A DNA stretch of 64,000 bases from Clostridia bacterium (GTDB taxonomy: Bacteria; Bacillota; Clostridia; Oscillospirales; Acutalibacteraceae): positions 4,895 through 68,894 of the forward strand of contig JAFQKF010000021.1 in NCBI GenBank assembly GCA_017397105.1, written 5' to 3'. Under the pieces are notes generated by a model, which searched no databases, was not told where the DNA came from, and saw nothing but the letters and a program-made list of their open reading frames with translations. This document shows, in pieces, positions 44,163 to 56,067 of this stretch (positions within the stretch are counted from its first letter, which is position 1; each line of letters begins with the position of its first letter). The translations under genes and the position numbers were made by a program.

Positions 44163-44525
44163 TTGAATGTTAAAAGGGGAGAAATTTATTACGCAGATTT
44201 AAGTCCCGTTGTAGGTTCCGAGCAAGGAGGAACCCGACCTGTACTTATTGTTCAGAACGATGTGGGGAATAAATTCAGCCCAACGGTAATAGCCGCCGCC
44301 ATTACCAGCCGCAGATTCAAAACCGAGCTGCCCACACACATAAGAGTAAACGCCGTTGAAAGCGGACTTGCAAAGGATTCGATTGTTCTTCTGGAGCAGG
44401 TGCGCACCATTGATAAACGCCGCTTGCGCGAAAAAATGGGCACTCTTGACAACACGGATATGGCGCGCATTAACCGTGCGCTTTCCGTAAGCCTCGGCAT
44501 TGACGAAACAGACTCCGTCGAATAA
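44163..44525 (+). CDS. mazF: PemK/MazF-family endoribonuclease toxin (EndoA-like)
   Basis: KRGEIYYADLSPVVGSEQGGTRPVLIVQNDVGNKFSPTVIAAAIT, LLEQVRTIDK; TTG start after GGGAGTG. Confidence 0.95.
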   Translation: MNVKRGEIYYADLSPVVGSEQGGTRPVLIVQNDVGNKFSPTVIAAAITSRRFKTELPTHIRVNAVESGLAKDSIVLLEQVRTIDKRRLREKMGTLDNTDMARINRALSVSLGIDETDSVE

Positions 44526-44701: not shown

Positions 44702-44730
44702 TTGACTTGTGAATTGTAATAAGGTATTAT
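44702..44730 (+). promoter_or_regulatory. sigmaA promoter of the leuA-like/acyl-CoA synthetase/ilvE/vor operon
   Basis: TTGACT-17 bp-TATTAT, about 70 nt before the ATG. Confidence 0.7.
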
Positions 44731-44802
44731 ATTTTGTAATCTTTTTAATTATAAGTGTTAAATTGATTAAAGCATTCATTTTTTGTAAGGGAGAAAAAAC
44801 GC

Positions 44803-46218
44803 ATGAAGAAAATTGCAATTGCAGACGTTACTCTTCGTGAAGGTGTCTGCAGAAGCGACATTTCGCTCAGTTTCAAAGAAAAGCTTGAAGTTGCAAAACT
44901 TCTCGACAAGCTCGGTGTAAACGTTATCGAAACAGCACCGATTATTGACGAAAAAACCGACACTCTGGTTCTTCGTACACTATGCTCCCTACTCAAAACA
45001 AGCATACTTTCCTGCCCCACGGGCCTTACCGTAGAAGGTGTTGACAGAGCATGGAAGGCAATCAGCGGCGCCGCAAAGTCAAGACTTTTTGTCTGCGCCC
45101 CTGTTTCCGCAGTGCAGATGGAATATCTCTGCCACAAAAAACCCGCCGCTATGCTTGATACAATCTCCGCTGTTGTAAGCCACGCTGCTTCACTTTGCGC
45201 AGACGTTGAATTCGCGGCTCAGGATGCAACAAGAAGTGAAAAGAGCTTCCTCTTCAGCGCAATCAAAACCGCTATTGATGCCGGAGCAAAAACAGTTACG
45301 GTATGTGACACATCAGGAATTATGCTCCCCGATGAATTTGCTCAGCTTATCACTGAAATTTACGAAGCTGTTCCCGAACTTTCAAACGTAGCCCTCAGCG
45401 TTGAATGCAGCAACGCCATGGATATGGCAAACGCCTGCGTTTTCGCCTGCATCAAGAACGGCGCTGTACAGATAAAAACAAACATCGGCGGCAACTCCTC
45501 ACCCTCAACCGATTCTCTTGCGAACGCAATCAGAATCAAAGGCGACTCACTGGGAGTTTCCTGTGACGTAAACACCATGGCAATCAGCCATACCGTACCC
45601 AAAATTCTCAGAATGACCACTTCTGATAAATCCGTTTACGCTGACGATTTCACCGCTACGTCATTTGAATCACGCAACGCCAGCGTTCTGCTTGATGCAA
45701 GTGCAGAGCTTTCTCAGGTAAGCAAGGCTGTTGTTGAGCTCGGCTACGACCTTAGCGATGACGATATCCTTAAGGTTTACGAAGCATTCAAAGTTGTTGC
45801 AGCAAAAAAACAGGTTGGCACCAAGGAGCTCGATTCAATCGTTGCAAGCGAAGCAAACCAGGTTCCCCCTACTTACAAGCTTGTCAACTACGTTATAAAC
45901 AGCGGTAACATTATGACTTCAACTGCCAACATCGTTCTCTCCAAAAACGGCAGAGAGCTCAGCGCAGTCGAAATGGGTGACGGCCCCATTGATGCCGCTT
46001 TCCTTACCATTGAGCAGATACTCGGCTGCCATTACGAGCTTGACGATTTTGAAATCCAGGCTGTTACCGAGGGAAGAACAGCTCTCGGCGAAGCGCTTGT
46101 TAAACTGCGCAGCAACGGCAAGATTTATTCAGGAAGAGGCATTTCAACCGATATAATCGGCGCAAGCATCCACGCTTACATAAATGCCCTCAACAAAATA
46201 GTTTATGAGGAGAATTAA
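44803..46218 (+). CDS. 2-isopropylmalate synthase (LeuA) homolog with a degenerate active site and an intact C-terminal regulatory domain
   Basis: DVTLREG, KLGVNVIE, DATRS, DTSG; C-terminal GDGPIDA...AVTEG...ALGE...GRGISTDIIGASIHAYINALN. Confidence 0.85.
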   Translation: MKKIAIADVTLREGVCRSDISLSFKEKLEVAKLLDKLGVNVIETAPIIDEKTDTLVLRTLCSLLKTSILSCPTGLTVEGVDRAWKAISGAAKSRLFVCAPVSAVQMEYLCHKKPAAMLDTISAVVSHAASLCADVEFAAQDATRSEKSFLFSAIKTAIDAGAKTVTVCDTSGIMLPDEFAQLITEIYEAVPELSNVALSVECSNAMDMANACVFACIKNGAVQIKTNIGGNSSPSTDSLANAIRIKGDSLGVSCDVNTMAISHTVPKILRMTTSDKSVYADDFTATSFESRNASVLLDASAELSQVSKAVVELGYDLSDDDILKVYEAFKVVAAKKQVGTKELDSIVASEANQVPPTYKLVNYVINSGNIMTSTANIVLSKNGRELSAVEMGDGPIDAAFLTIEQILGCHYELDDFEIQAVTEGRTALGEALVKLRSNGKIYSGRGISTDIIGASIHAYINALNKIVYEEN

Positions 46219-46221
46219 AAT

Positions 46222-48729
46222 ATGAAGCTGTCCTTTTCAACCAACGGCTGGCACAGCTTCGGCTGGAGCGATTTCACAGCCATGGCGTGCGAGCTCGGTT
46301 TCAACGGAATCGAAGTGCATGACATTCTGAGCGATTCCATGAGTGCGGCTGATGCACCTTTCGAAAGCTCTAAAATTTCTTCAACAACCCGCAAGCTTGC
46401 GGAGCAGGGATTATGCATCCCCTGCATCGACACAGTATGCAACATTGCAGACTCCTCAAAAATCGATGAAAGCTGTGAGGAAATTGAGAATTATATTGAC
46501 CGCGCTTCAAAGCTCGGCTGTCCCTACGTAAGAATCCACGCAACCGCCACAGTCCAGACCCCCAGAGAGGATGACGAAACGGTAGTAACCGTGGTAGGCA
46601 GAGTGGTTTCCAAAGCCGAAAAAGCAGGAATTACTCTTCTGATTGAAACAAGCGGCATTTTTGCCGACACTTCAAGACTGCGTGACATTCTTAACATCTT
46701 CGCCTGCGACAACGTTGCGGCACTCTGGGATTTCAACCATCCCTACCGCTTCTTTAACGAAGACCCCGACACCACAATAAAGAATCTCGGCGCTTACGTT
46801 AAGCACGTTCACATCAAGGATTCAAAGGTTGTTGACTCCAAAGTCAAATACTGCATCCTCGGCGACGGTGACCTTCCCATTGCTGAGATGTTCGGCGCCT
46901 TACGTTCAGTAGGTTACAGCGGATTCATTTCACTTGAATGTAATCCTGCTTTACTTGACGACTTTTCGGATAAGGATATCATCTTCCCCCATTTCGTCAA
47001 TTACATCACAATTTACGACGTTCAGGAAGAGGAATTCGGTCTTTACTGGAACAGAGCAAAAACAGGCAGATACGTGTGGAAAAAAGAAGAGCTTATAAAC
47101 AAAACGTTCTCCGAAGTGCTTGACACCATGGTTGAGCTTTTCCCCGACCAGTACGTATTCAAATACACAACCCTCGATTACACAAGAACTTACTCACAGT
47201 TCCGTGATGACGTTGATACCTTCGCCCGTTCACTTATTGCTATGGGCGTAAAGCCCGGCGACAAGGTTGCCGTATGGCTTACTAACCTGCCCCAATGGTT
47301 CATCGCTTTCTGGGCAACGGTAAAAATCGGCGCCGTTCTCGTTACGGTAAACACCGCTTATAAAATTCACGAGATTGAGTATCTTCTCAGGCAGTCCGAT
47401 ACTCACACTCTTATCACCATTGAATCCTGCCTCGATTCAAACTACGCTCAGTCAATCGCTGAGCTTTGCCCCGAGCTTGAATTCACCCCCGCAGGAAGCC
47501 CTCTCCACTGCAGACGGCTCCCCTTCCTTCGTAACATAATCACAGTAGGTTACCGCCAGAAGGGCTGCCTTACATGGGAAGAAGCTATGGATATGTCCGT
47601 AAGAGTTCCCGTGGAGGAGGTTTACCGCAGAGCAGCAGCCGTTGATTGCCACGACGTTGCAAATATGCAGTACACCTCGGGCACAACAGGCTTCCCCAAG
47701 GGCGTTATGCTCACTCACTACAACATCGTTAATAACGGCAAGTGCATCGGTGACAGAATGGATATGTCCACCGCTGACCGTATGATGATTCAGGTTCCCA
47801 TGTTCCATTGCTTCGGTATGGTTCTTTCAATGACATCTATGATGACTCACGGCGGCACCCTCTGTCCTCTCCCCTATTTCTCCGCAAAATCATCACTTGC
47901 CTGCATAAACCTTGAACGCATAACCTGCTTCAACGGTGTTCCCACCATGTTCATTGCGATGTTCCAGCACGACGACTTCGCCACAACCGATTTCTCATAC
48001 ATGAGAACAGGTATCATGGCCGGCGCCAACTGCCCGCCTGACCTTATGAAGCGCGCTGCAGCCGAAATGAACATGACTGAAATCCTCAGCGTTTACGGCG
48101 AAACAGAGGCATCCCCCGGTTGTACAATGGGCGAGGTAAATGAATCCCTTGCTGACAGAACCGAAACCGTAGGAAGCGCCTTCCCCCACGTTGAATGCAA
48201 GATTATTGACCCCGAAACAGGCGAAGACCTGCCGGACGGCGAAAACGGCGAGTTCGTTGCAAGGGGCTACAATATCATGAAGGGCTACTACAAAATGCCC
48301 AAGGCAACCGAAGCCGCTATCGACAAGGACGGCTGGCTTCACAGCGGTGACATTGCCTGCAGACGCCCTGACGGTTACTATCTCATCACCGGCAGACTCA
48401 AGGATATGATAATCCGAGGCGGCGAAAACATTTATCCCCGTGAGATTGAAGAATTCATTTTCACTCACAATTACGTTCAGGACGTTCAGGTTATCGGCGT
48501 ACCCGACAAAAGATACGGTGAAGAAATTATGGCCTGCATTATCCTTAAAGAAGGCTGTGATATGACCGTGGAGGAAATGAAGGAATACATTCAGTCCCAC
48601 ATGGCAAGGCACAAGGTTCCCCGCTACATTGAATTTGTTGAAGACTTCCCCAAAAATGCGGCCGGCAAGATTCTCAAGTATAAAATGAGAGAAGAATTCG
48701 CTCAGAAGCTCGGCCTTACAAAGAATTAA
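46222..48729 (+). CDS. Fusion of a xylose-isomerase-like TIM barrel (about aa 1-265) and an AMP-forming acyl-CoA synthetase
   Basis: N-terminal GFNGIE, LLIET, LWDFNH, HVHIKD, GFISLE. C-terminal YTSGTTGFPKG, YGETE, GWLHSGD, GRLKDMIIRGGENIYPREIE, PKNAAGKI. Confidence 0.9.
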   Translation: MKLSFSTNGWHSFGWSDFTAMACELGFNGIEVHDILSDSMSAADAPFESSKISSTTRKLAEQGLCIPCIDTVCNIADSSKIDESCEEIENYIDRASKLGCPYVRIHATATVQTPREDDETVVTVVGRVVSKAEKAGITLLIETSGIFADTSRLRDILNIFACDNVAALWDFNHPYRFFNEDPDTTIKNLGAYVKHVHIKDSKVVDSKVKYCILGDGDLPIAEMFGALRSVGYSGFISLECNPALLDDFSDKDIIFPHFVNYITIYDVQEEEFGLYWNRAKTGRYVWKKEELINKTFSEVLDTMVELFPDQYVFKYTTLDYTRTYSQFRDDVDTFARSLIAMGVKPGDKVAVWLTNLPQWFIAFWATVKIGAVLVTVNTAYKIHEIEYLLRQSDTHTLITIESCLDSNYAQSIAELCPELEFTPAGSPLHCRRLPFLRNIITVGYRQKGCLTWEEAMDMSVRVPVEEVYRRAAAVDCHDVANMQYTSGTTGFPKGVMLTHYNIVNNGKCIGDRMDMSTADRMMIQVPMFHCFGMVLSMTSMMTHGGTLCPLPYFSAKSSLACINLERITCFNGVPTMFIAMFQHDDFATTDFSYMRTGIMAGANCPPDLMKRAAAEMNMTEILSVYGETEASPGCTMGEVNESLADRTETVGSAFPHVECKIIDPETGEDLPDGENGEFVARGYNIMKGYYKMPKATEAAIDKDGWLHSGDIACRRPDGYYLITGRLKDMIIRGGENIYPREIEEFIFTHNYVQDVQVIGVPDKRYGEEIMACIILKEGCDMTVEEMKEYIQSHMARHKVPRYIEFVEDFPKNAAGKILKYKMREEFAQKLGLTKN

Positions 48730-48741
48730 ACTACTGAAAGG

Positions 48742-49812
48742 GTGTTAAATATGTTAAATATCAAAATTGAAAAAACAACCGCTCCCAAGGCAAAACCCGA
48801 AGGCAAGCTCGGCTTCGGCAAAATCTTCACTGACCATATGTTCATCATGAACTACACAGAGGGCCAGGGCTGGCACGATGCAAGAATCGTTCCTTACGGC
48901 GATCTTTCCTTCTCCCCTGCCTGCATGGTTTTCCACTACGGTCAGGAAATGTTTGAAGGTCTTAAGGCTTACAGAGGCACTGACGGCACTCCCAGACTCT
49001 TCAGACCCGACATGAACGCAAAAAGAACAAACGATACAAACAAAAGACTTTGCATCCCCGAGCTTCCCGTTGAGGATTTCGTTCAGGCTGTAAGCGCTGT
49101 TGTTGACGTTGACCGTGATTGGATCCCCTCAGACCCCGGCACCTCACTTTACATCCGTCCCTTCATCATCGCTACCGATGCTTTCCTCGGCGTTGCTCCC
49201 TCAAAGACATACCTCTTCATAATCATCCTCTCCCCCAGCGGTGCTTACTATGAAAGCGGACTTGCTCCCGTTGGCATCTGGATTGAAGATGACTACGTAA
49301 GAGCAGTAAGAGGCGGCATGGGCTTTGCAAAGACAGGCGGCAACTACGCAGCAAGCCTTGCAGCTCAGGTTAAGGCTCACGATGACGGTTATTCACAGGT
49401 CCTCTGGCTTGACGGCGTTGAGAGAAAGTACATAGAAGAAGTTGGCGCTATGAACATTTTCTTCAAGATTGACGGCAAAATCGTCACTCCCATGCTCAAC
49501 GGCTCAATCCTTCCCGGCATCACCCGTAACTCCGTAATCGAGCTTTGCAAGAGCTGGGGTCTTGACGTTGAAGAGCGCAAGATTTCCGTTGACGAGCTCC
49601 TCGAGGCTCAGGCAACAGGCAAGCTTGAGGAATGCTTCGGCACAGGTACCGCCGCAGTTATTTCTCCCGTTGGCAAGCTTCGCTACAAGGACGACGTTAT
49701 GACCATCAACGGCGGTAACATCGGTGAAATCAGCCAGAAGCTTTACGATACCGTTACAGGCATTCAGTGCGGCAGCGTTGAAGATAAATTCGGCTGGGTT
49801 GTAACCCTTTAA
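48742..49812 (+). CDS. ilvE: Branched-chain amino acid aminotransferase
   Basis: FGKIFTDHM, HYGQEMFEGLKAY, LYIRP, KTGGNY, EEVGAMN, LPGITR, GTAAVISP. The start may be 48751. Confidence 0.96.
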   Translation: MLNMLNIKIEKTTAPKAKPEGKLGFGKIFTDHMFIMNYTEGQGWHDARIVPYGDLSFSPACMVFHYGQEMFEGLKAYRGTDGTPRLFRPDMNAKRTNDTNKRLCIPELPVEDFVQAVSAVVDVDRDWIPSDPGTSLYIRPFIIATDAFLGVAPSKTYLFIIILSPSGAYYESGLAPVGIWIEDDYVRAVRGGMGFAKTGGNYAASLAAQVKAHDDGYSQVLWLDGVERKYIEEVGAMNIFFKIDGKIVTPMLNGSILPGITRNSVIELCKSWGLDVEERKISVDELLEAQATGKLEECFGTGTAAVISPVGKLRYKDDVMTINGGNIGEISQKLYDTVTGIQCGSVEDKFGWVVTL

Positions 49813-49818
49813 TCAACT

Positions 49819-50505
49819 ATGGAATTTAAAAGAATCACTCTTTTTTGCGGACATTACGGCAGCGGCAAAACCAACATCGCCGTAAACTGTGCCATAAAGC
49901 TCAAGAAGGACTATAAAAAAGTTGCAATAGCTGACCTTGATATAGTAAACCCCTATTTCAGAACGAAGGACAGCGAAAAAACTCTTGAAGCACATTCGAT
50001 AAAGCTTATATCTTCCGAATACGCAGGCTCCAACGTTGACGTGCCTGCTCTGCCGTCCCAGGCATATTCACTCTTTGATAACAAAGAGCTCAAAGCTGTA
50101 ATCGACGTAGGCGGTGATGACAGAGGCGCTCTCGCTCTGGGCAGATACGCACCTCTTCTCAAGGAAGAAAACGATTACGATATGCTTCTTGTAATCAACA
50201 AATTCAGACCTCTTACCCCCGATGCAGAAAGCACGGTTGAAGTAATGCGTGAAATTGAACAGGCCTGCGGTATTCAGTTCACGGGAATTGTAAACAACTC
50301 AAATCTCGGTGACGAAACCTGTGCGCAGGACGTTCTTTCAAGCATTGATTATGCCCGTGAAGTAGCTGAGGTTACAAATCTTCCCGTTAAAATGACAACG
50401 GTAAGGGAAGAACTTTACGGCGAACTCAGCGATAAAATTGATAATCTTATGCCCATAAGACTGTACGTTAAACAGTCCTGGACTATACAGGAGGAAAAAC
50501 ACTAA
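49819..50505 (+). CDS. P-loop NTPase of unknown function, associated with 2-oxoacid oxidoreductase genes
   Basis: GHYGSGKT, ADLDIVNPYFR, DVGGDDRGA. Confidence 0.8.
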   Translation: MEFKRITLFCGHYGSGKTNIAVNCAIKLKKDYKKVAIADLDIVNPYFRTKDSEKTLEAHSIKLISSEYAGSNVDVPALPSQAYSLFDNKELKAVIDVGGDDRGALALGRYAPLLKEENDYDMLLVINKFRPLTPDAESTVEVMREIEQACGIQFTGIVNNSNLGDETCAQDVLSSIDYAREVAEVTNLPVKMTTVREELYGELSDKIDNLMPIRLYVKQSWTIQEEKH

Positions 50506-50711
50506 TGGCAAAGGTAACTTTTAAAACCGATTTATGTAAGGGCTGCGGTCTTTGCGTTGGCGCTTGCCCTAAAGGAATCGTTGCTCTGCTTGACGACGTT
50601 ATTAACGCAAAAGGCTATCACCCCGCAGGTATTACAGACCAGGAAAAGTGCATCGGCTGTGCTTTCTGCGCAACCATGTGCCCCGATTGCGTAATCAAGG
50701 TAGAAAAGTAA
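50505..50711 (+). CDS. 2[4Fe-4S] ferredoxin (delta subunit)
   Basis: CKGCGLCVGACP and CIGCAFCATMCP. Confidence 0.95.
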   Translation: MAKVTFKTDLCKGCGLCVGACPKGIVALLDDVINAKGYHPAGITDQEKCIGCAFCATMCPDCVIKVEK

Positions 50712-50726
50712 GGAAGGAGAGTTAAA

Positions 50727-51797
50727 ATGGCTGAAAAAGTATTAATGAAGGGTAACGAAGCGCTTGCAGAAGCTGCTATCATGGCAGGCTGCCGCCACTA
50801 TTTCGGTTACCCCATCACCCCTCAGACTGAAATCGCTGCTTATATGGCAAAGAGAATGCCCAAAATCGGCGGCACATTCCTTCAGGCTGAAAGCGAAATC
50901 GCCGCTATCAACATGGTTTACGGCGCAGCAGCAGCAGGCAAAAGAGCTATGACTTCAAGCTCAAGCCCCGGAATTGCTCTTAAGAGCGAAGGTCTCTCCT
51001 ACCTTGCAGGCTCTGACCTTCCCGCACTTATCATCAACGTTCAGAGAGGCGGCCCCGGTCTCGGCGGCATCCAGCCCTCACAGTCTGACTATTTCCACGC
51101 AACAAGAGGCGCAGGCCACGGCGACTTCCATATGATCGTTCTCGCTCCCGCTTCCGTTCAGGAAATGGTTGACCTCACCTTCAAGGGCTTTGACCTTGCT
51201 GACAAATACCGCTCCCCCGTTATGCTCCTTTCAGACGGTACAATGGGTCAGATGATGGAGCCCGTAAGCCTTGATATGGGCGAAGTTAAGGAATATGATA
51301 AATCCTCATGGGCTACAAACGGCACAAAGTGCGAAAGAGAGCACAACGTTGTAAACTCCCTTTTCATCCAGCCCGACGAGCTTGAAAGATACAACTTTGA
51401 GCGTTATGAGCGCTATGCTCACATCGAGGCAAACGAAGTTATGTATTCCGAATACTGCATGGATGATGCAGAAATCTGCATAGTTGCTTACGGCGTTGCT
51501 GCAAGAGTTTCACAGAACGCTGTTGACAAAGCACGCGAGCAGGGAATCAAAGTAGGTATGATAAGACCCATCACCCTCTGGCCCTTCCCCAAGGCTGTTC
51601 TTAATGCTGCTGCCGATAAGGTTAAGGCGTTTATCAGCGTTGAGCTTTCCATGGGTCAGCTTATCGAGGACGTTCAGCTTGCTACAAGCTGCAAGAAGCC
51701 CGTTCTTCTTTGCAACCGTACAGGCGGCATGATCCCCACTACCGAGGATGTTCTTGCATCCATTAACAAAGCAAACTCTGTCGGAGGTGACAAATAA
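50727..51797 (+). CDS. vorB: 2-oxoacid:ferredoxin oxidoreductase alpha subunit (VorB-like, 3-methyl-2-oxobutanoate type)
   Basis: MKGNEA, FGYPITPQ, QAESE, TSSSSPG, RGGPGLGGIQP. Confidence 0.85.
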   Translation: MAEKVLMKGNEALAEAAIMAGCRHYFGYPITPQTEIAAYMAKRMPKIGGTFLQAESEIAAINMVYGAAAAGKRAMTSSSSPGIALKSEGLSYLAGSDLPALIINVQRGGPGLGGIQPSQSDYFHATRGAGHGDFHMIVLAPASVQEMVDLTFKGFDLADKYRSPVMLLSDGTMGQMMEPVSLDMGEVKEYDKSSWATNGTKCEREHNVVNSLFIQPDELERYNFERYERYAHIEANEVMYSEYCMDDAEICIVAYGVAARVSQNAVDKAREQGIKVGMIRPITLWPFPKAVLNAAADKVKAFISVELSMGQLIEDVQLATSCKKPVLLCNRTGGMIPTTEDVLASINKANSVGGDK

Positions 51798-52546
51798 TGA
51801 TAGTTTTTGATAAACCCAAGGCTCTCGCCGACGTACCCCTTCATTATTGCCCCGGCTGCACTCACGGCATCGTTCACCGTCTTGTTGCAGAGGTTATTGA
51901 TGAACTCGGCATCGAAGGCAAAACAGTAGGCGTCGCTCCTGTTGGCTGCTCCGTTTTTGCTTACAATTATTTTAACTGCGATATGATTGAGGCTGCTCAC
52001 GGCCGTGCTCCCGCTGTTGCTACCGGCGTTAAAAGAGCCGACCCCGACAATATCGTATTCACCTATCAGGGTGACGGCGACCTCGCTTCAATCGGCACCT
52101 GTGAAACCGTTCACGCTGCCGCAAGAAACGAAAACATCACCATTATCTTTATCAACAACACAATTTACGGCATGACCGGCGGCCAGATGGCTCCCACCTC
52201 ACTTCCCGGCCAGATTACCCAGACCTCTCCCTACGGCAGAGACGTAAACACCGTAGGTCTTCCCATCAAGGTTTGCGAAATGCTTTCACAGGTTGACGGC
52301 GCTTCCTACCTTGAAAGAGTTGCCGTAAACAACGTTAAGAACGTAAGAAATGCCAAGAAGGCTATCAAGCGTGCTTTCCAGAACCAGCTTGAAGGCAAGG
52401 GCTTCTCCCTTATAGAAGTTCTTTCCACCTGCCCCACAAACTGGGGTCTTACACCCGATAAGGCTCTCAAGTGGCTTGAGGAAAACATGATTCCTTATTA
52501 CCCTCTCGGCGTATACAAGGATAAGTACAGCGAGGAGGGCAAATAA
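51797..52546 (+). CDS. 2-oxoacid:ferredoxin oxidoreductase beta (TPP-binding) subunit
   Basis: YCPGCTHG, PVGC, AHGR, YQGDGD, NN..YGMTGGQ, CPTNW. Confidence 0.92.
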   Translation: MIVFDKPKALADVPLHYCPGCTHGIVHRLVAEVIDELGIEGKTVGVAPVGCSVFAYNYFNCDMIEAAHGRAPAVATGVKRADPDNIVFTYQGDGDLASIGTCETVHAAARNENITIIFINNTIYGMTGGQMAPTSLPGQITQTSPYGRDVNTVGLPIKVCEMLSQVDGASYLERVAVNNVKNVRNAKKAIKRAFQNQLEGKGFSLIEVLSTCPTNWGLTPDKALKWLEENMIPYYPLGVYKDKYSEEGK

Positions 52547-52547
52547 T

Positions 52548-53075
52548 ATGACAAAATCAATTCTTCTTGCAGGCTTCGGCGGCCAGGGCATTCTTTTCAG
52601 CGGAAAGTTCCTTGCTTACAAAGGTCTTATTGAAGGCAACGAGGTAAGCTGGCTTCCCTCATACGGCCCTGAGATGAGAGGCGGCACCTGCAACTGCAGC
52701 GTCATCCTCAGTGACAGACAGATCGGTTCCCCCATCGTTACCAATCCCGATATCCTTATTGCTATGAACCTCCCCTCGCTTGATAAGTTTGAAAACGCAG
52801 TTGTTCCCGGCGGTCAGATTTTCGTTGACAGCACTCTTATTGAGCGCAAGGTTAACAGAGATGACGTTGACGTTTTCTATATCCCCGCTACAAGACTTGC
52901 AAGCGAAAACGGTTTCCAGACTCTTGCAAACATGGTTATGATAGGTCACCTTCTCAGCAAGGGCGACTTTACCCGTGACAATATCGACACAGCTATGGGT
53001 AAAATCGTTTCCGCAAAGCGTCAGAATCTTCTTGATTCCAACATCGCTGCCGTTGAGCTTGGTTATAACTATTAA
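52548..53075 (+). CDS. 2-oxoacid:ferredoxin oxidoreductase gamma subunit
   Basis: [24 protein letters not shown]. Confidence 0.92.
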
Positions 53076-53105
53076 TCATCATTCCATCAGGAGAGGATAA
53101 TCAGT

Positions 53106-53657
53106 ATGACGTACGAACTCAAAGAAATCGGCAAAAGACTTTCCGTCTTGCGCGATATCAACGATATTACCGCAGAAGAAATGGCATCAAAGCTCAATAT
53201 GAGCACCGAAAATTACCTTGCCTGCGAAAAGGGAGAAGCGGATTTTTCATTCAGCTTTATCCTCAATGCGGCGGTAATTCTCGGCATTGACGTACTTGAA
53301 ATCATAAGCGGAGTCAGCCCCAAGCTTTCCACCTGCACGGTTGTTAAAAAAGGTCACGGCTTCCCCATCAACCGCAACACGGGTAACGATTACAGACATC
53401 TTGCCCATACTTTCAGGGATGCAAAAGCTGACCCCCTGCTTGTTACCGTTTCTCCCAGCGATGATCCGCCTGTTATGCACGATCACGAAGGTCAGGAATT
53501 CAACTACGTGCTTCACGGCAATATGAAATTCTACATCGGCGACATCTGCTATGAGCTCGGCAAGGGTGACAGCGTTTATTTTGATTCAAGCATTCCCCAT
53601 GCTGAAAAAGCAGTAGGCGGTAAGGATTTGCAGTTCCTTGCAATAGTTTTAAAGTAA
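53106..53657 (+). CDS. XRE-HTH plus cupin transcriptional regulator
   Basis: IGKRL...HTH, then cupin HDHEGQEFNYV...GDSVYFDSSIPH. Confidence 0.9.
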   Translation: MTYELKEIGKRLSVLRDINDITAEEMASKLNMSTENYLACEKGEADFSFSFILNAAVILGIDVLEIISGVSPKLSTCTVVKKGHGFPINRNTGNDYRHLAHTFRDAKADPLLVTVSPSDDPPVMHDHEGQEFNYVLHGNMKFYIGDICYELGKGDSVYFDSSIPHAEKAVGGKDLQFLAIVLK

Positions 53658-53670
53658 AATAACGTTTTTT

Positions 53671-53700
53671 AATCCGCTCATTTTTATGGGCGGATTTTTA
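53671..53700 (+). terminator. Intrinsic terminator of the operon
   Basis: AATCCGCTCAT...ATGGGCGGATT followed by a T-run. Confidence 0.8.
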
Positions 53701-53729
53701 TTGAAATGAGTATGCCTGTATGATATAAT
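53701..53729 (+). promoter_or_regulatory. sigmaA promoter of the GH95 gene
   Basis: TTGAAA-17 bp-TATAAT with extended TG. Confidence 0.75.
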
Positions 53730-53763
53730 GAAAATAATATTATCCCGAAAGGATGTTGAATAT

Positions 53764-56067
53764 ATGAAGCAGTTTGATTCTCTTTTGTGGTACAGCCAGC
53801 CCTCAAAGGCATGGACCCAGAGCCTTCCCATCGGTAACGGCACTCTCGGCGCCATGATTTACGGCACCGTTGGCAGTGAGCTTCTTTCTCTTAACCACGA
53901 TGAACTGTGGACAGGCTATCCCGAAGATACCAACTACGTCAAAAACGCCCCCGAAGCCCTCAGAAAGACCCGTGAGCTCATAATGCAGGGAAAGTTCGCA
54001 GAGGGTCAGAAAGTCTGCGAAGAAGGCTTCCAGAGCCGTTGGAGTCAGGCTTATATGCCTTTGGGCGATATTAAAATAGATTTCACCTCCTGCAAGCGTG
54101 CACGCAGCTATAAAAGAAGCCTCGATATCGCAAATGCCATTGCAAGCGTTGAATATACTCAGGACGGTGTTGAATTCAGAAGAGAATACTTTGCTTCTTA
54201 TCCTGACAAGGTTATAGCCGCTAAAATCACCGCAAGCAAGCCTGCGCTCAACTTCACTCTTACTCTCACAAGCAAGCTTAAATCTTTTGTTTTCACTCGT
54301 AACGATGTGCTCTGGCTTGACGGTGAGTGCCCCTCTGATAATTGCGAAAACATGGAAACGGGCAAAAACCGCTACATTGATGATGACGAATGCAGAGGAA
54401 TTCAGTTCAGAGCAGGCGTTAAGCTTACCGCGGACGGTAAGGTAACCTATTCTGATGACGGAATCACCGTAGCCGACGCAAGCGAAGTAACCTTTTTCTT
54501 CACCTGCGTTACAAGCTTTAACAGCTACGATAAAAAGCCTTATCTTGAAGGCAAGGAATACAAAAAGCCCTGCGCTGATATTCTTGAGAATATTTCGGAT
54601 TATGAAACCGTCAAGAAAAATCACCTCGCCGACTATACCGGCATTTACAACAGAGTAAGCCTCGACCTTGGCGAAAGCGAGCACTCCTCACTTCCAACGG
54701 ACAAAAGACTAAAAAAATTCGCAACCGCAAAAAAAGACCCTTCGCTTATATCTCTTATATATAATTACGGCAGATATCTTGCCATTTCATCCTCACGCGA
54801 AGGCTCTCAGCCCTCAACCCTTCAGGGCATATGGAATCACCGTGTAAATCCCCCCTGGAATTCAAACTATACCGTAAACATCAACACCGAAATGAACTAC
54901 TGGCCCGTGCTTATGTGCCGTATGCCTGAGGTAAACCTTCCGCTTGTAAAAATGGTTGAAGAGCTTTCGGTAAAGGGCGAAAAGACCGCAAAGGTATTCT
55001 ATGATGCTCCCGGTTTCGTAAGCCACCACAATGTTGACCTCTGGCGTCTTACCACCCCCGTGCCCGGCTGTGCTTCCTGGAGCTTCTGGCCCGGCTCTTC
55101 CGGCTGGTTGTGCCGCCATCTGTTTGAGCATTACGAGTATACAACGGACATTGAATTCCTCAGAAATACCGCTTATCCCGTTATGAAAAAGGCTGCGGAA
55201 TTCTATCTTTCACAGCTCGCCGATAACGGCAACGGCAAGCTTATTTTCCCCGCAGGAACTTCACCCGAAAATCTTTTTGTTCAGGGTAAAGACAACTGCG
55301 CAATAGGCAAAACCTCCACTATGACAATGAGCATCATCAAGGATTTGTTTACCTCCTGCGTTAAGGCAAGCAAAATTCTTAAAGCTGACGGCGAATTTGC
55401 CGCAAAGCTTCAGAATGCGCTCGATAATATGCTCGGCTTTGAAATCGGCTCAAAAGGTCAGCTCCTTGAATGGGATGATGAATATATTGAAGAAGACCCT
55501 CACCACCGCCACGTTTCGCATCTCTATGCTCTGCACCCTGCAAGCCTCATCACCGCTGACGGCACACCTGACCTCGCAGCCGCCTGCAGAAAGACTCTGG
55601 AAGGCAGAGGCGATAACGGCACAGGCTGGAGCCTTGGCTGGAAAATCAACTTCTGGGCAAGACTTTTTGACGGAGACCACGCTCTCAAGCTTATCGAAAT
55701 GCAGCTTCGCCCCGTTAAGAGCATCGGCATAAAATACAGCAGAGGCGGCGGAACATACGAAAATCTTTTCGACGCTCATCCTCCTTTCCAGATTGACGGT
55801 AACTTCGGCGCAACAAGCGGTATAACCGAAATGCTCATGCAGTCGCGCGACGGTAAAATCTACCTTCTCCCCGCCCTGCCCTCCTCATGGAAAAACGGAG
55901 AAATCAAGGGTCTGCTTGCAAAGGGCAATATCATAGTTGATATTGTTTGGGAAAACGGCAAACTCAAGAATTATACCCTCAACGGCAAGGGCGATATAAC
56001 GGTTGTATACAACGGCGAAGAAAAGAAAATCACGCTTTCTTCAAAGCCCGAAACCTTTGATGCATAA
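53764..56067 (+). CDS. Glycoside hydrolase family 95 (alpha-L-fucosidase-like)
   Basis: [64 protein letters not shown]. Start moved to ATG 53764. No signal peptide. Confidence 0.93.

Follow-up and report, generated by a model that had tools for sequence, protein, structure and literature searches.

A putative nine-gene operon of an Acutalibacteraceae bacterium that probably makes leucine from isovalerate, with a LeuA pseudoenzyme as its predicted sensor

We analysed a 64,000-nucleotide stretch of a Clostridia bacterium of the family Acutalibacteraceae (GenBank assembly GCA_017397105.1, contig JAFQKF010000021.1, positions 4,895 to 68,894 of the forward strand), referred to here as the window. 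Relatives of this bacterium inhabit animal guts. Nine open reading frames (ORFs) are packed on its + strand between 44803 and 53657, neighbouring frames being separated by -1 to 30 nt. Their products are a LeuA-like protein stripped of its catalytic residues (dead LeuA), a TIM-barrel::acyl-CoA ligase fusion, the aminotransferase IlvE, a P-loop NTPase, the likely four subunits of a 2-oxoisovalerate:ferredoxin oxidoreductase (Vor), and an XRE-family helix-turn-helix (HTH)-cupin protein. As judged by sequence comparison, this putative operon probably makes leucine from isovalerate, with the dead LeuA acting as a predicted leucine sensor on the ligase. An earlier note on this DNA had proposed a chain in which an acid becomes an acyl-CoA, then a 2-oxoacid, and finally an amino acid; the anabolic direction of that chain is very probable given T-box leaders in relatives, the exclusion of leuB and ilvCD, and the co-occurrence of ligase and Vor.

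The first gene (44803..46218) encodes a 471-aa protein with HMGL-like and LeuA_dimer domains, which scored below every LeuA cut-off (TIGR00973, 292.5 vs 598.7 bits). Full-length homologues matching with E <1e-90 were defined as dead LeuA, a threshold set by a gap between 1e-96 and 1e-38, and 103 family members were compared with six true LeuA proteins of relatives and, pairwise, with 3EWB. Residues D13, H201, H203, and the GER of GERAGN were kept in none of the 103, and the FAHESGIHQHG segment (subdomain I) was absent from all of them. Since loss of such catalytic residues in the LeuA family is established to mean loss of synthase activity, the protein is assigned as a pseudoenzyme. The allosteric domain at its C-terminus is kept, GxGP and STD motifs included (PF08502, 109.7 bits), and G392, G394, G424, G444, Y459, and N464 are invariant across the family, so that the protein may bind leucine. 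In comparison with true LeuA (TIGR00973; PDB 3EWB, 3RMJ), it shares the TIM barrel, subdomain II, and the allosteric domain but lacks the metal ligands, GERAGN, and subdomain I, always stands before the ligase gene, and occurs mostly where leuB is missing. Identity to the true LeuA of relatives was about 30-32%, rising to about 40% in the C-terminal part. When the protein was used to search for homologues, at least 7989 of 8000 candidates matched with E <1e-60, and the names among the matches listed were hypothetical or LeuA-like only.

The second gene (46222..48729) encodes an 835-aa protein in which a xylose-isomerase-like TIM barrel (AP_endonuc_2, PF01261) is fused to an AMP-forming acyl-CoA ligase (PF00501, PF13193). 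The YTSGTTGFPKG loop was invariant in 62 aligned ligases, and the fold matches were AMP-forming ligases of the ANL superfamily. Isovalerate is, with good probability, the substrate, a proposal that draws on the leucine T-boxes and the leuB exclusion described below. Searches by PDB profile, Atlas, and fold gave only superfamily-level matches for the TIM domain and thus no family name, and Foldseek of the whole fused protein listed ligases without a TIM-domain match.

The product of 48742..49812 is IlvE, which scored above the NF009897 and TIGR01123 cut-offs (498 vs 307 and 409 vs 250 bits). Four adjacent genes further downstream carry the POR_N, TPP_enzyme_C, POR, and Fer4 domains of a four-subunit Vor. 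The alpha subunit (50727..51797) scored 545 bits against the NF005507 cut-off of 399; the beta subunit (51797..52546), which binds thiamine pyrophosphate (PF02775), and the gamma subunit (52548..53075; PF01558) remained below the cut-offs of the beta-subunit models and TIGR02175, respectively. The 68-aa 2x[4Fe-4S] protein encoded at 50505..50711 had been called a ferredoxin in the earlier note. Its best NCBIfam rows were delta subunits, below cut-off, and its sequence suggests that it is probably the Vor delta subunit. Its N-terminus MAKV matches the start encoded by the forward primer for the kor3 cluster of C. thermocellum, as given in PMC8072342. The window Vor thus shares the alpha family, the four subunits, and the delta-first start with described Vor/Kor enzymes (EC 1.2.7.7; NF005507; C. 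thermocellum kor3, Clo1313_1353-1356) and differs from them in being linked to ligases, IlvE, and a P-loop NTPase. Elsewhere in the genome (G000:C49:3789-6105) lies another 2-oxoacid oxidoreductase, a distant one of about 25% identity.

In the proposed route, the ligase would convert isovalerate to isovaleryl-CoA, the four-subunit Vor would join isovaleryl-CoA with CO2 at the expense of reduced ferredoxin to give 2-oxoisocaproate, and IlvE would aminate the latter to leucine. Feedback is predicted to come from the dead LeuA, which would sense leucine and restrain the ligase. Vor and IlvE would form a shared core that also serves 2-methylbutyryl-CoA, and probably isobutyryl-CoA, supplied by a second ligase encoded on another contig (C37) of the genome. 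An anabolic Vor with an adjacent ligase is familiar from methanogens.

T-boxes switch genes on during starvation for their amino acid. Where enough sequence was available, a T-box motif was found upstream of dead LeuA (86 of 103 loci); XRE-cupin genes were preceded by one in 65 of 86 cases, and Rfam returned RF00230 for all six submitted loci. The specifier at dead LeuA was a leucine codon in 85 of 87 T-boxes (CUC 54, CUG 31; one of the others was unreadable and one misaligned), whereas the 64 specifiers before XRE-cupin ligases were isoleucine (40) or valine (24). Specifiers were taken from the alignment, and the same register gave, by eye, the expected codon at five control leaders of this genome, whose genes we take from their N-termini to be pheS, valS, cysE, trpB, and alaS. 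Leucine T-boxes, all CUC or CUG by eye, also preceded fused ligases without dead LeuA in 8 of 18 loci; six of these eight were confirmed by Rfam, one fell below threshold, and one was unsubmitted (10 loci were submitted in all). Because starvation-induced leucine, isoleucine, and valine T-boxes precede the ligases of relatives, the direction is read as anabolic. No phenylalanine or other non-branched-chain specifier was read among the 151 T-boxes, and phenylacetate, which had been suggested as a substrate to include in assays, is therefore disfavoured. The relatives thus use the canonical leucine, isoleucine, and valine T-boxes known from the T-box ilv-leu operons of Bacillota (RF00230), but the cargo is a salvage route rather than de novo synthesis, and the window copy itself has no T-box. 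In a lineage of T-box-less relatives (L018-L021 and L049), a conserved palindrome, GTGAAAGTTTTCAC, that is not found in the window lies downstream of the -10 box, a short way upstream of the dead-LeuA start. We take it to resemble a Rex-type operator; if so, the operon would be tied to the redox state in that lineage.

Occurrence was scored in 150 family genomes that were at least 90% complete and represented one genus each; dead LeuA was found in 28 of them. LeuB scored over cut-off in 1 of the 28 carriers vs 92 of the 122 others, ilvC in 3 of 28 vs 84 of 122, and strong ilvD in 3 of 28 vs 86 of 122 (any ilvD match, 8 of 28 vs 87 of 122). The IlvD threshold was placed at about 400 bits, and six genomes with weaker matches only were set aside. 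In these six (G010, G011, G024, G052, G075, and G089), five of which carry dead LeuA, the only IlvD-family match lay below 377 bits and belonged to a weaker subtype, possibly sugar-acid dehydratases. Vor was present in all 28 carriers (one copy partial and under cut-off) vs 51 of the others. The 79 Vor-positive genomes comprised 27 with dead LeuA only, 48 with leuB only, 1 with both, and 3 with neither. In a class sample, in which 348 Clostridia genomes were scored and two further ones were left out, dead LeuA occurred in 62 genomes from 18 families, and leuB was found in 9 of the 62 carriers vs 186 of 286 others. Six genera (g77, g162, g169, g172, g186, and g224) each contained both a carrier lacking leuB and a non-carrier retaining it. 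The anticorrelation with ilvCD and leuBCD that the earlier note had asked for was thus observed for the dead-LeuA module, but Vor did not behave in the same way: ilvC was found in 42 of 79 Vor-positive vs 45 of 71 Vor-negative genomes and leuB in 49 of 79 vs 44 of 71. Vor was accordingly rejected as a marker of ilv/leu loss. All eight genomes with leuB but without ilvCD have Vor (G001, G007, G025, G037, G067, G090, G097, and G136), and it is possible that these organisms make leucine from isobutyrate-derived 2-oxoisovalerate via Vor.

In the 75.9%-complete assembly analysed here, no IlvD, AHAS, or LeuB scored over cut-off, no IlvC C-domain was found beside a marginal KARI_N match, the aconitase family was represented only by a 655-aa frame, and no HMGL-like gene was present besides dead LeuA. 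Searches of this assembly also gave no butyrate kinase over cut-off, no BrnQ, and no LivFG. A 98%-complete congener (G073) likewise had no IlvC, IlvD, or LeuB match over cut-off.

The survey of gene neighbourhoods, another check proposed earlier, showed that the genes are conserved together in parts. Dead LeuA was directly followed by the TIM::ligase gene in all 106 loci with room for it, the other 2 of 108 ending at a contig edge. The P-loop gene lay immediately 5' of the 4Fe-4S (delta) gene in 61 of 62 Vor loci, and Vor fell inside the fetched stretch in 57 of the 108 dead-LeuA loci. The eight-gene order of the window was found again in 13 of the 108 loci of relatives, 11 of which include the XRE gene, and 9 of the 13 have a leucine T-box. 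Because these pairs are conserved while the full order recurs only in this minority, the block is an assembly of modules, namely dead LeuA with the ligase, the P-loop gene with Vor, IlvE, and the XRE-cupin ligases.

A ligase of the window type was present in 59 of the 150 family genomes. It was fused to the TIM barrel in the 28 carriers and in 18 non-carriers and was shorter in 12, one distant match being set aside from these classes; Vor was present in all 46 genomes with the fused form and all 12 with the shorter form. The ligases linked to dead LeuA form one clade (FastTree support 0.999). In ligases of non-carriers, the TIM site, which includes the Glu-Asp-His-Glu metal site of the barrel (E31, R33, R104, E142, D170, H172, H173, H197, D200, and E239) was invariant in 19 of 19 sequences, whereas it decays in carriers, where E142 was kept in 61, D170 in 64, and E239 in 73 of 91. 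The window protein retains E142, D170, H173, H197, D200, and E239 and has H33 and N172 in place of invariant residues. Root-to-tip distances were 2.46 in carriers vs 1.2 in non-carriers for the TIM domain and 0.66 vs 0.48 for the ligase domain, showing that the TIM domain evolves faster in dead-LeuA carriers and the ligase domain barely does so.

The complex of dead LeuA with ligase residues 1-290, predicted with 62 of 86 available pairs, gave an ipSAE of 0.33 vs 0.01 for the best control, with at least 67% contact agreement among runs and a partner pLDDT of at least 80. In calibration, 116 of 157 solved complexes and 2 of 215 mismatches attained the mark used; at scores up to 0.60, only 18 of the 157 solved complexes did so, along with both mismatches. 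The model hints at docking of dead LeuA on the TIM domain, from which it may have inherited a sensing function, and we put the chance that dead LeuA senses leucine through contact with the ligase at about even. Two narrower roles for the TIM domain were rejected. As an obligatory C3-epimerase for an isoleucine precursor it would be expected to keep its catalytic glutamates, which are unconserved in carriers, and the T-box there reads leucine; as a dock solely for dead LeuA it does not fit the 18 genomes with the fusion but no dead LeuA, nor the separate TIM gene beside both of the two shorter ligases fetched. In those two loci (L146:5857-8379 and L147:6663-9150), ligase and TIM barrel are encoded by separate adjacent genes, ligase first; the pairing of ligase and TIM barrel therefore needs neither fusion nor dead LeuA.

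The operon had been put forward as a candidate complete operon linking branched-chain fatty acids and branched-chain amino acids. It is instead the leucine entry together with the shared Vor/IlvE core, because an isoleucine-type ligase lies on contig C37 and the XRE gene of the window has no ligase partner. On C37 (L124:7131-9467, - strand), an isoleucine T-box precedes a fused HTH-cupin::acyl-CoA ligase, whose best PDB match was 3ETC (E 1e-196) and which is only 24% identical to the window ligase and belongs to a different family. It matches the Methanosarcina acetivorans medium-chain acyl-CoA synthetase (3ETC) and shares the GWGK motif of that enzyme, but differs from it and from S. aureus MbcS by its HTH-cupin fusion; the window ligase differs from them by its family and its TIM-barrel fusion. 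The 3ETC enzyme reportedly prefers 2-methylbutyrate. The C37 ligase is likely the isoleucine entry of the same route and may serve the acids for both isoleucine and valine, a valine-type ligase not having been found in this 75.9%-complete assembly. A further ligase, about 45% identical to the isoleucine/valine type, is encoded at G000:C32:58265-59965.

The isoleucine and valine labels were compared on FastTree trees of the fused XRE-cupin ligases whose T-box had been read (59 in all). They changed once on the HTH-cupin tree, where 7 of 192 columns were diagnostic, and three times on that of the ligase domain, where 1 of 572 was, with about 19 changes in shuffles, indicating a cleaner separation by amino acid for the HTH-cupin domains than for the ligase domains. 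One column, the variable residue of TGW(G/A)K, tracks the T-box, with G in 34 of 35 isoleucine ligases and A in 24 of 24 valine ligases, while stand-alone ligases carry M or L. Its counterpart in an acetyl-CoA synthetase is the Ile of GWITGH, which we take to be an acyl-pocket residue. The HTH-cupin gene of the window (53106..53657), in which Pfam scored Cupin_2 only, falls into a clade of its own whose members usually lie ahead of a stand-alone ligase gene. That usual downstream partner was not found in this assembly (best match 51%), and no operator for the protein was evident in the leader alignment.

Several observations weigh against the proposed route or its leucine sensor. The window operon has neither a T-box motif nor an Rfam match in its leader, and its closest relatives likewise lack a T-box, so that the direction of this copy is borrowed from orthologues. 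The window ligase lies under all listed NCBIfam cut-offs and its best PDB match had an E value of 4e-76; 3ETC was not among its best 60 PDB rows, and a close characterised relative, including a branched-acid ligase, is therefore lacking. The 18 non-carriers with a fused ligase all have leuB, so the sensor is dispensable there; nine of the 62 carriers in the class sample retain leuB; and the complex score is a weak pass. The genomes are moreover not independent, owing to kinship and to the single clade of linked ligases, so Fisher P values overstate the exclusion of leuB, and absence from a 75.9%-complete assembly is not proof of absence from the organism.

Some of these points would also fit an oxidative operon, in which IlvE and Vor degrade branched-chain amino acids to acyl-CoAs or acids as in peptide-fermenting anaerobes. 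The window copy has no T-box, Vor does not anticorrelate with ilvC or leuB, and PMC8072342 describes Kor/Vor as reversible enzymes of degradation and biosynthesis and Vor as oxidative in isobutanol formation by C. thermocellum. Yet starvation-induced T-boxes stand before the ligases of relatives, no butyrate kinase scored over cut-off in this assembly, and the module replaces leuB, which a catabolic route does not explain. AMP-forming ligases, according to textbook knowledge, also favour activation. We regard this alternative as highly improbable, and scarcely more credit is due to a ligase that mainly feeds branched acyl-CoA primers to membrane lipids, with amino acids secondary. MbcS of S. 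aureus reportedly allows branched fatty acids to be made from such acids (PMC10026030 and PMC11167679), and ruminococci incorporate branched chains into lipids (PMC7709123), but the leucine T-box, the linkage to Vor and IlvE, and the exclusion of leuB indicate leucine supply, and none of the nine genes is a fatty-acid synthesis gene. The two uses are compatible with each other.

A somewhat better case, though still an unlikely one, can be made for an anabolic route in which the LeuA copy or the TIM domain has acquired a new catalytic or purely structural role, possibly with another acid, and dead LeuA is not a leucine sensor. The LeuA-like barrel is whole, with near-invariant residues (K225 in 99 of 103; also D8, T10, S102, D141, R144, and D169), the TIM site is invariant in non-carriers and largely kept in the window, and the complex is only weakly predicted. 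On the other hand, the metal ligands and catalytic motifs of LeuA are gone in 103 sequences while the allosteric motifs are kept, decay of the TIM site in carriers argues that it is no obligatory step there, and the specifiers read offer no hint of another acid. Leucine formation from isovalerate under a LeuA-derived sensor remains our preferred reading, which we hold to be probable overall. Beyond it, a wider scenario can be entertained only speculatively, and we consider it rather doubtful as a whole: many gut Clostridia would have swapped the de novo formation of branched-chain amino acids for a CO2-fixing salvage with a separate sensor for each entry ligase, the remnant of LeuA would dock on the TIM domain and would have taken over from a metal site that then decayed, and fused HTH-cupin domains would be the sensors for isoleucine and valine, one pocket residue setting the size of the acid. 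In this scenario, the enzyme that once opened a lost pathway would live on as a regulatory subunit of its replacement.

The chemistry itself is old. According to PMC7356843, which cites Allison and co-workers (1962-1971), rumen microbes make leucine, isoleucine, and valine from isovalerate, 2-methylbutyrate, and isobutyrate, and a 2020 paper regarded the reverse route via EC 1.2.7.7 as unproven in its organism (PMC7709123). Rumen reductive carboxylation has the same overall chemistry of acid activation, CO2 addition, and amination as proposed here, but it was known from physiology and labelling, whereas the present work, from sequence alone, offers concrete genes, a family set of three amino-acid-specific ligases, and sensor candidates. 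No paper was found on the gene set, the T-box triad, or the LeuA pseudoenzyme in a search in which hits were mostly screened by title or abstract start and few subscription journals were covered, so an earlier mention is possible. The description of the system as undescribed therefore applies to how the route is solved at the level of genes, to the leucine pseudoenzyme, and to the logic of the sensors, as far as our searches reach, and not to the chemistry.

That rumen and gut anaerobes require branched short-chain acids has been recognised since the labelling work of the 1960s, and the operon supplies candidate genes and control logic for this need in Clostridia, with named enzymes open to expression and assay. 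Dead LeuA, carried by 62 of the 348 Clostridia genomes sampled, most of them without leuB, may also be used as a genomic marker and would alter genome-based calls of amino-acid auxotrophy and cross-feeding. If the sensor reading is true, a pseudoenzyme would here plainly regulate the pathway that supplanted the one it came from. The route would also draw on CO2 and reduced ferredoxin and so has a bearing on how hydrogen is disposed of in the rumen.

The P-loop protein encoded between IlvE and the delta subunit (49819..50505) is a SIMIBI-class NTPase with weak CbiA/ParA similarity. Its fold is nearest to FlhF/SRP GTPases (Z 16.4, rmsd [root-mean-square deviation] 2.9, 174 residues aligned); the match to ApbC was lower (Z 12.9), NF041136 gave 20 bits against a cut-off of 450, and the family alignment contains no invariant Cys. 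PDB profile, Atlas, and fold searches gave superfamily-level matches and no named family. The gene holds its place before Vor delta also in genomes without dead LeuA, and because of this fixed position we tentatively propose Vor assembly or maturation as its likeliest role, with somewhat less than even confidence.

The nine packed genes reported earlier were confirmed, but the promoter and terminator assigned to them are matches close to chance level. The sigma-70-like match TTGACT-17-TATTAT (44702..44730, + strand) scores 10/12 and is kept in the two closest relatives, and the terminator-like hairpin (53671..53696, + strand; 11 pairs and a T tail) overlaps the promoter region of the next gene. 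Promoter-like matches numbered 23 in the window vs 13.8 +/- 4.1 in shuffles, and terminator-like matches 18 vs 14.7 +/- 3.5. Since such flanking matches are common, a single transcript is suggested by the gene spacing. RNA contigs were not used as evidence of co-transcription: one RNA run, available as contigs only, held 0.13 of words, its pieces (89-96% identity) join the P-loop gene with alpha, beta with gamma, and XRE with the fucosidase gene downstream, and a contig does not demonstrate a single transcript. The nearest named records were metagenome-assembled genomes of Acutalibacteraceae with 94-95% protein identity.

Just upstream of the operon, a PemK/MazF-family toxin gene (44163-44525) is present; the three closest relatives have it as well, and no ORF of at least 50 aa that might encode an antitoxin was evident beside it. 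Directly after the operon lies a GH95 glycosidase gene (53701-56067), whose 11/12 promoter match starts 5 nt past the terminator stem.

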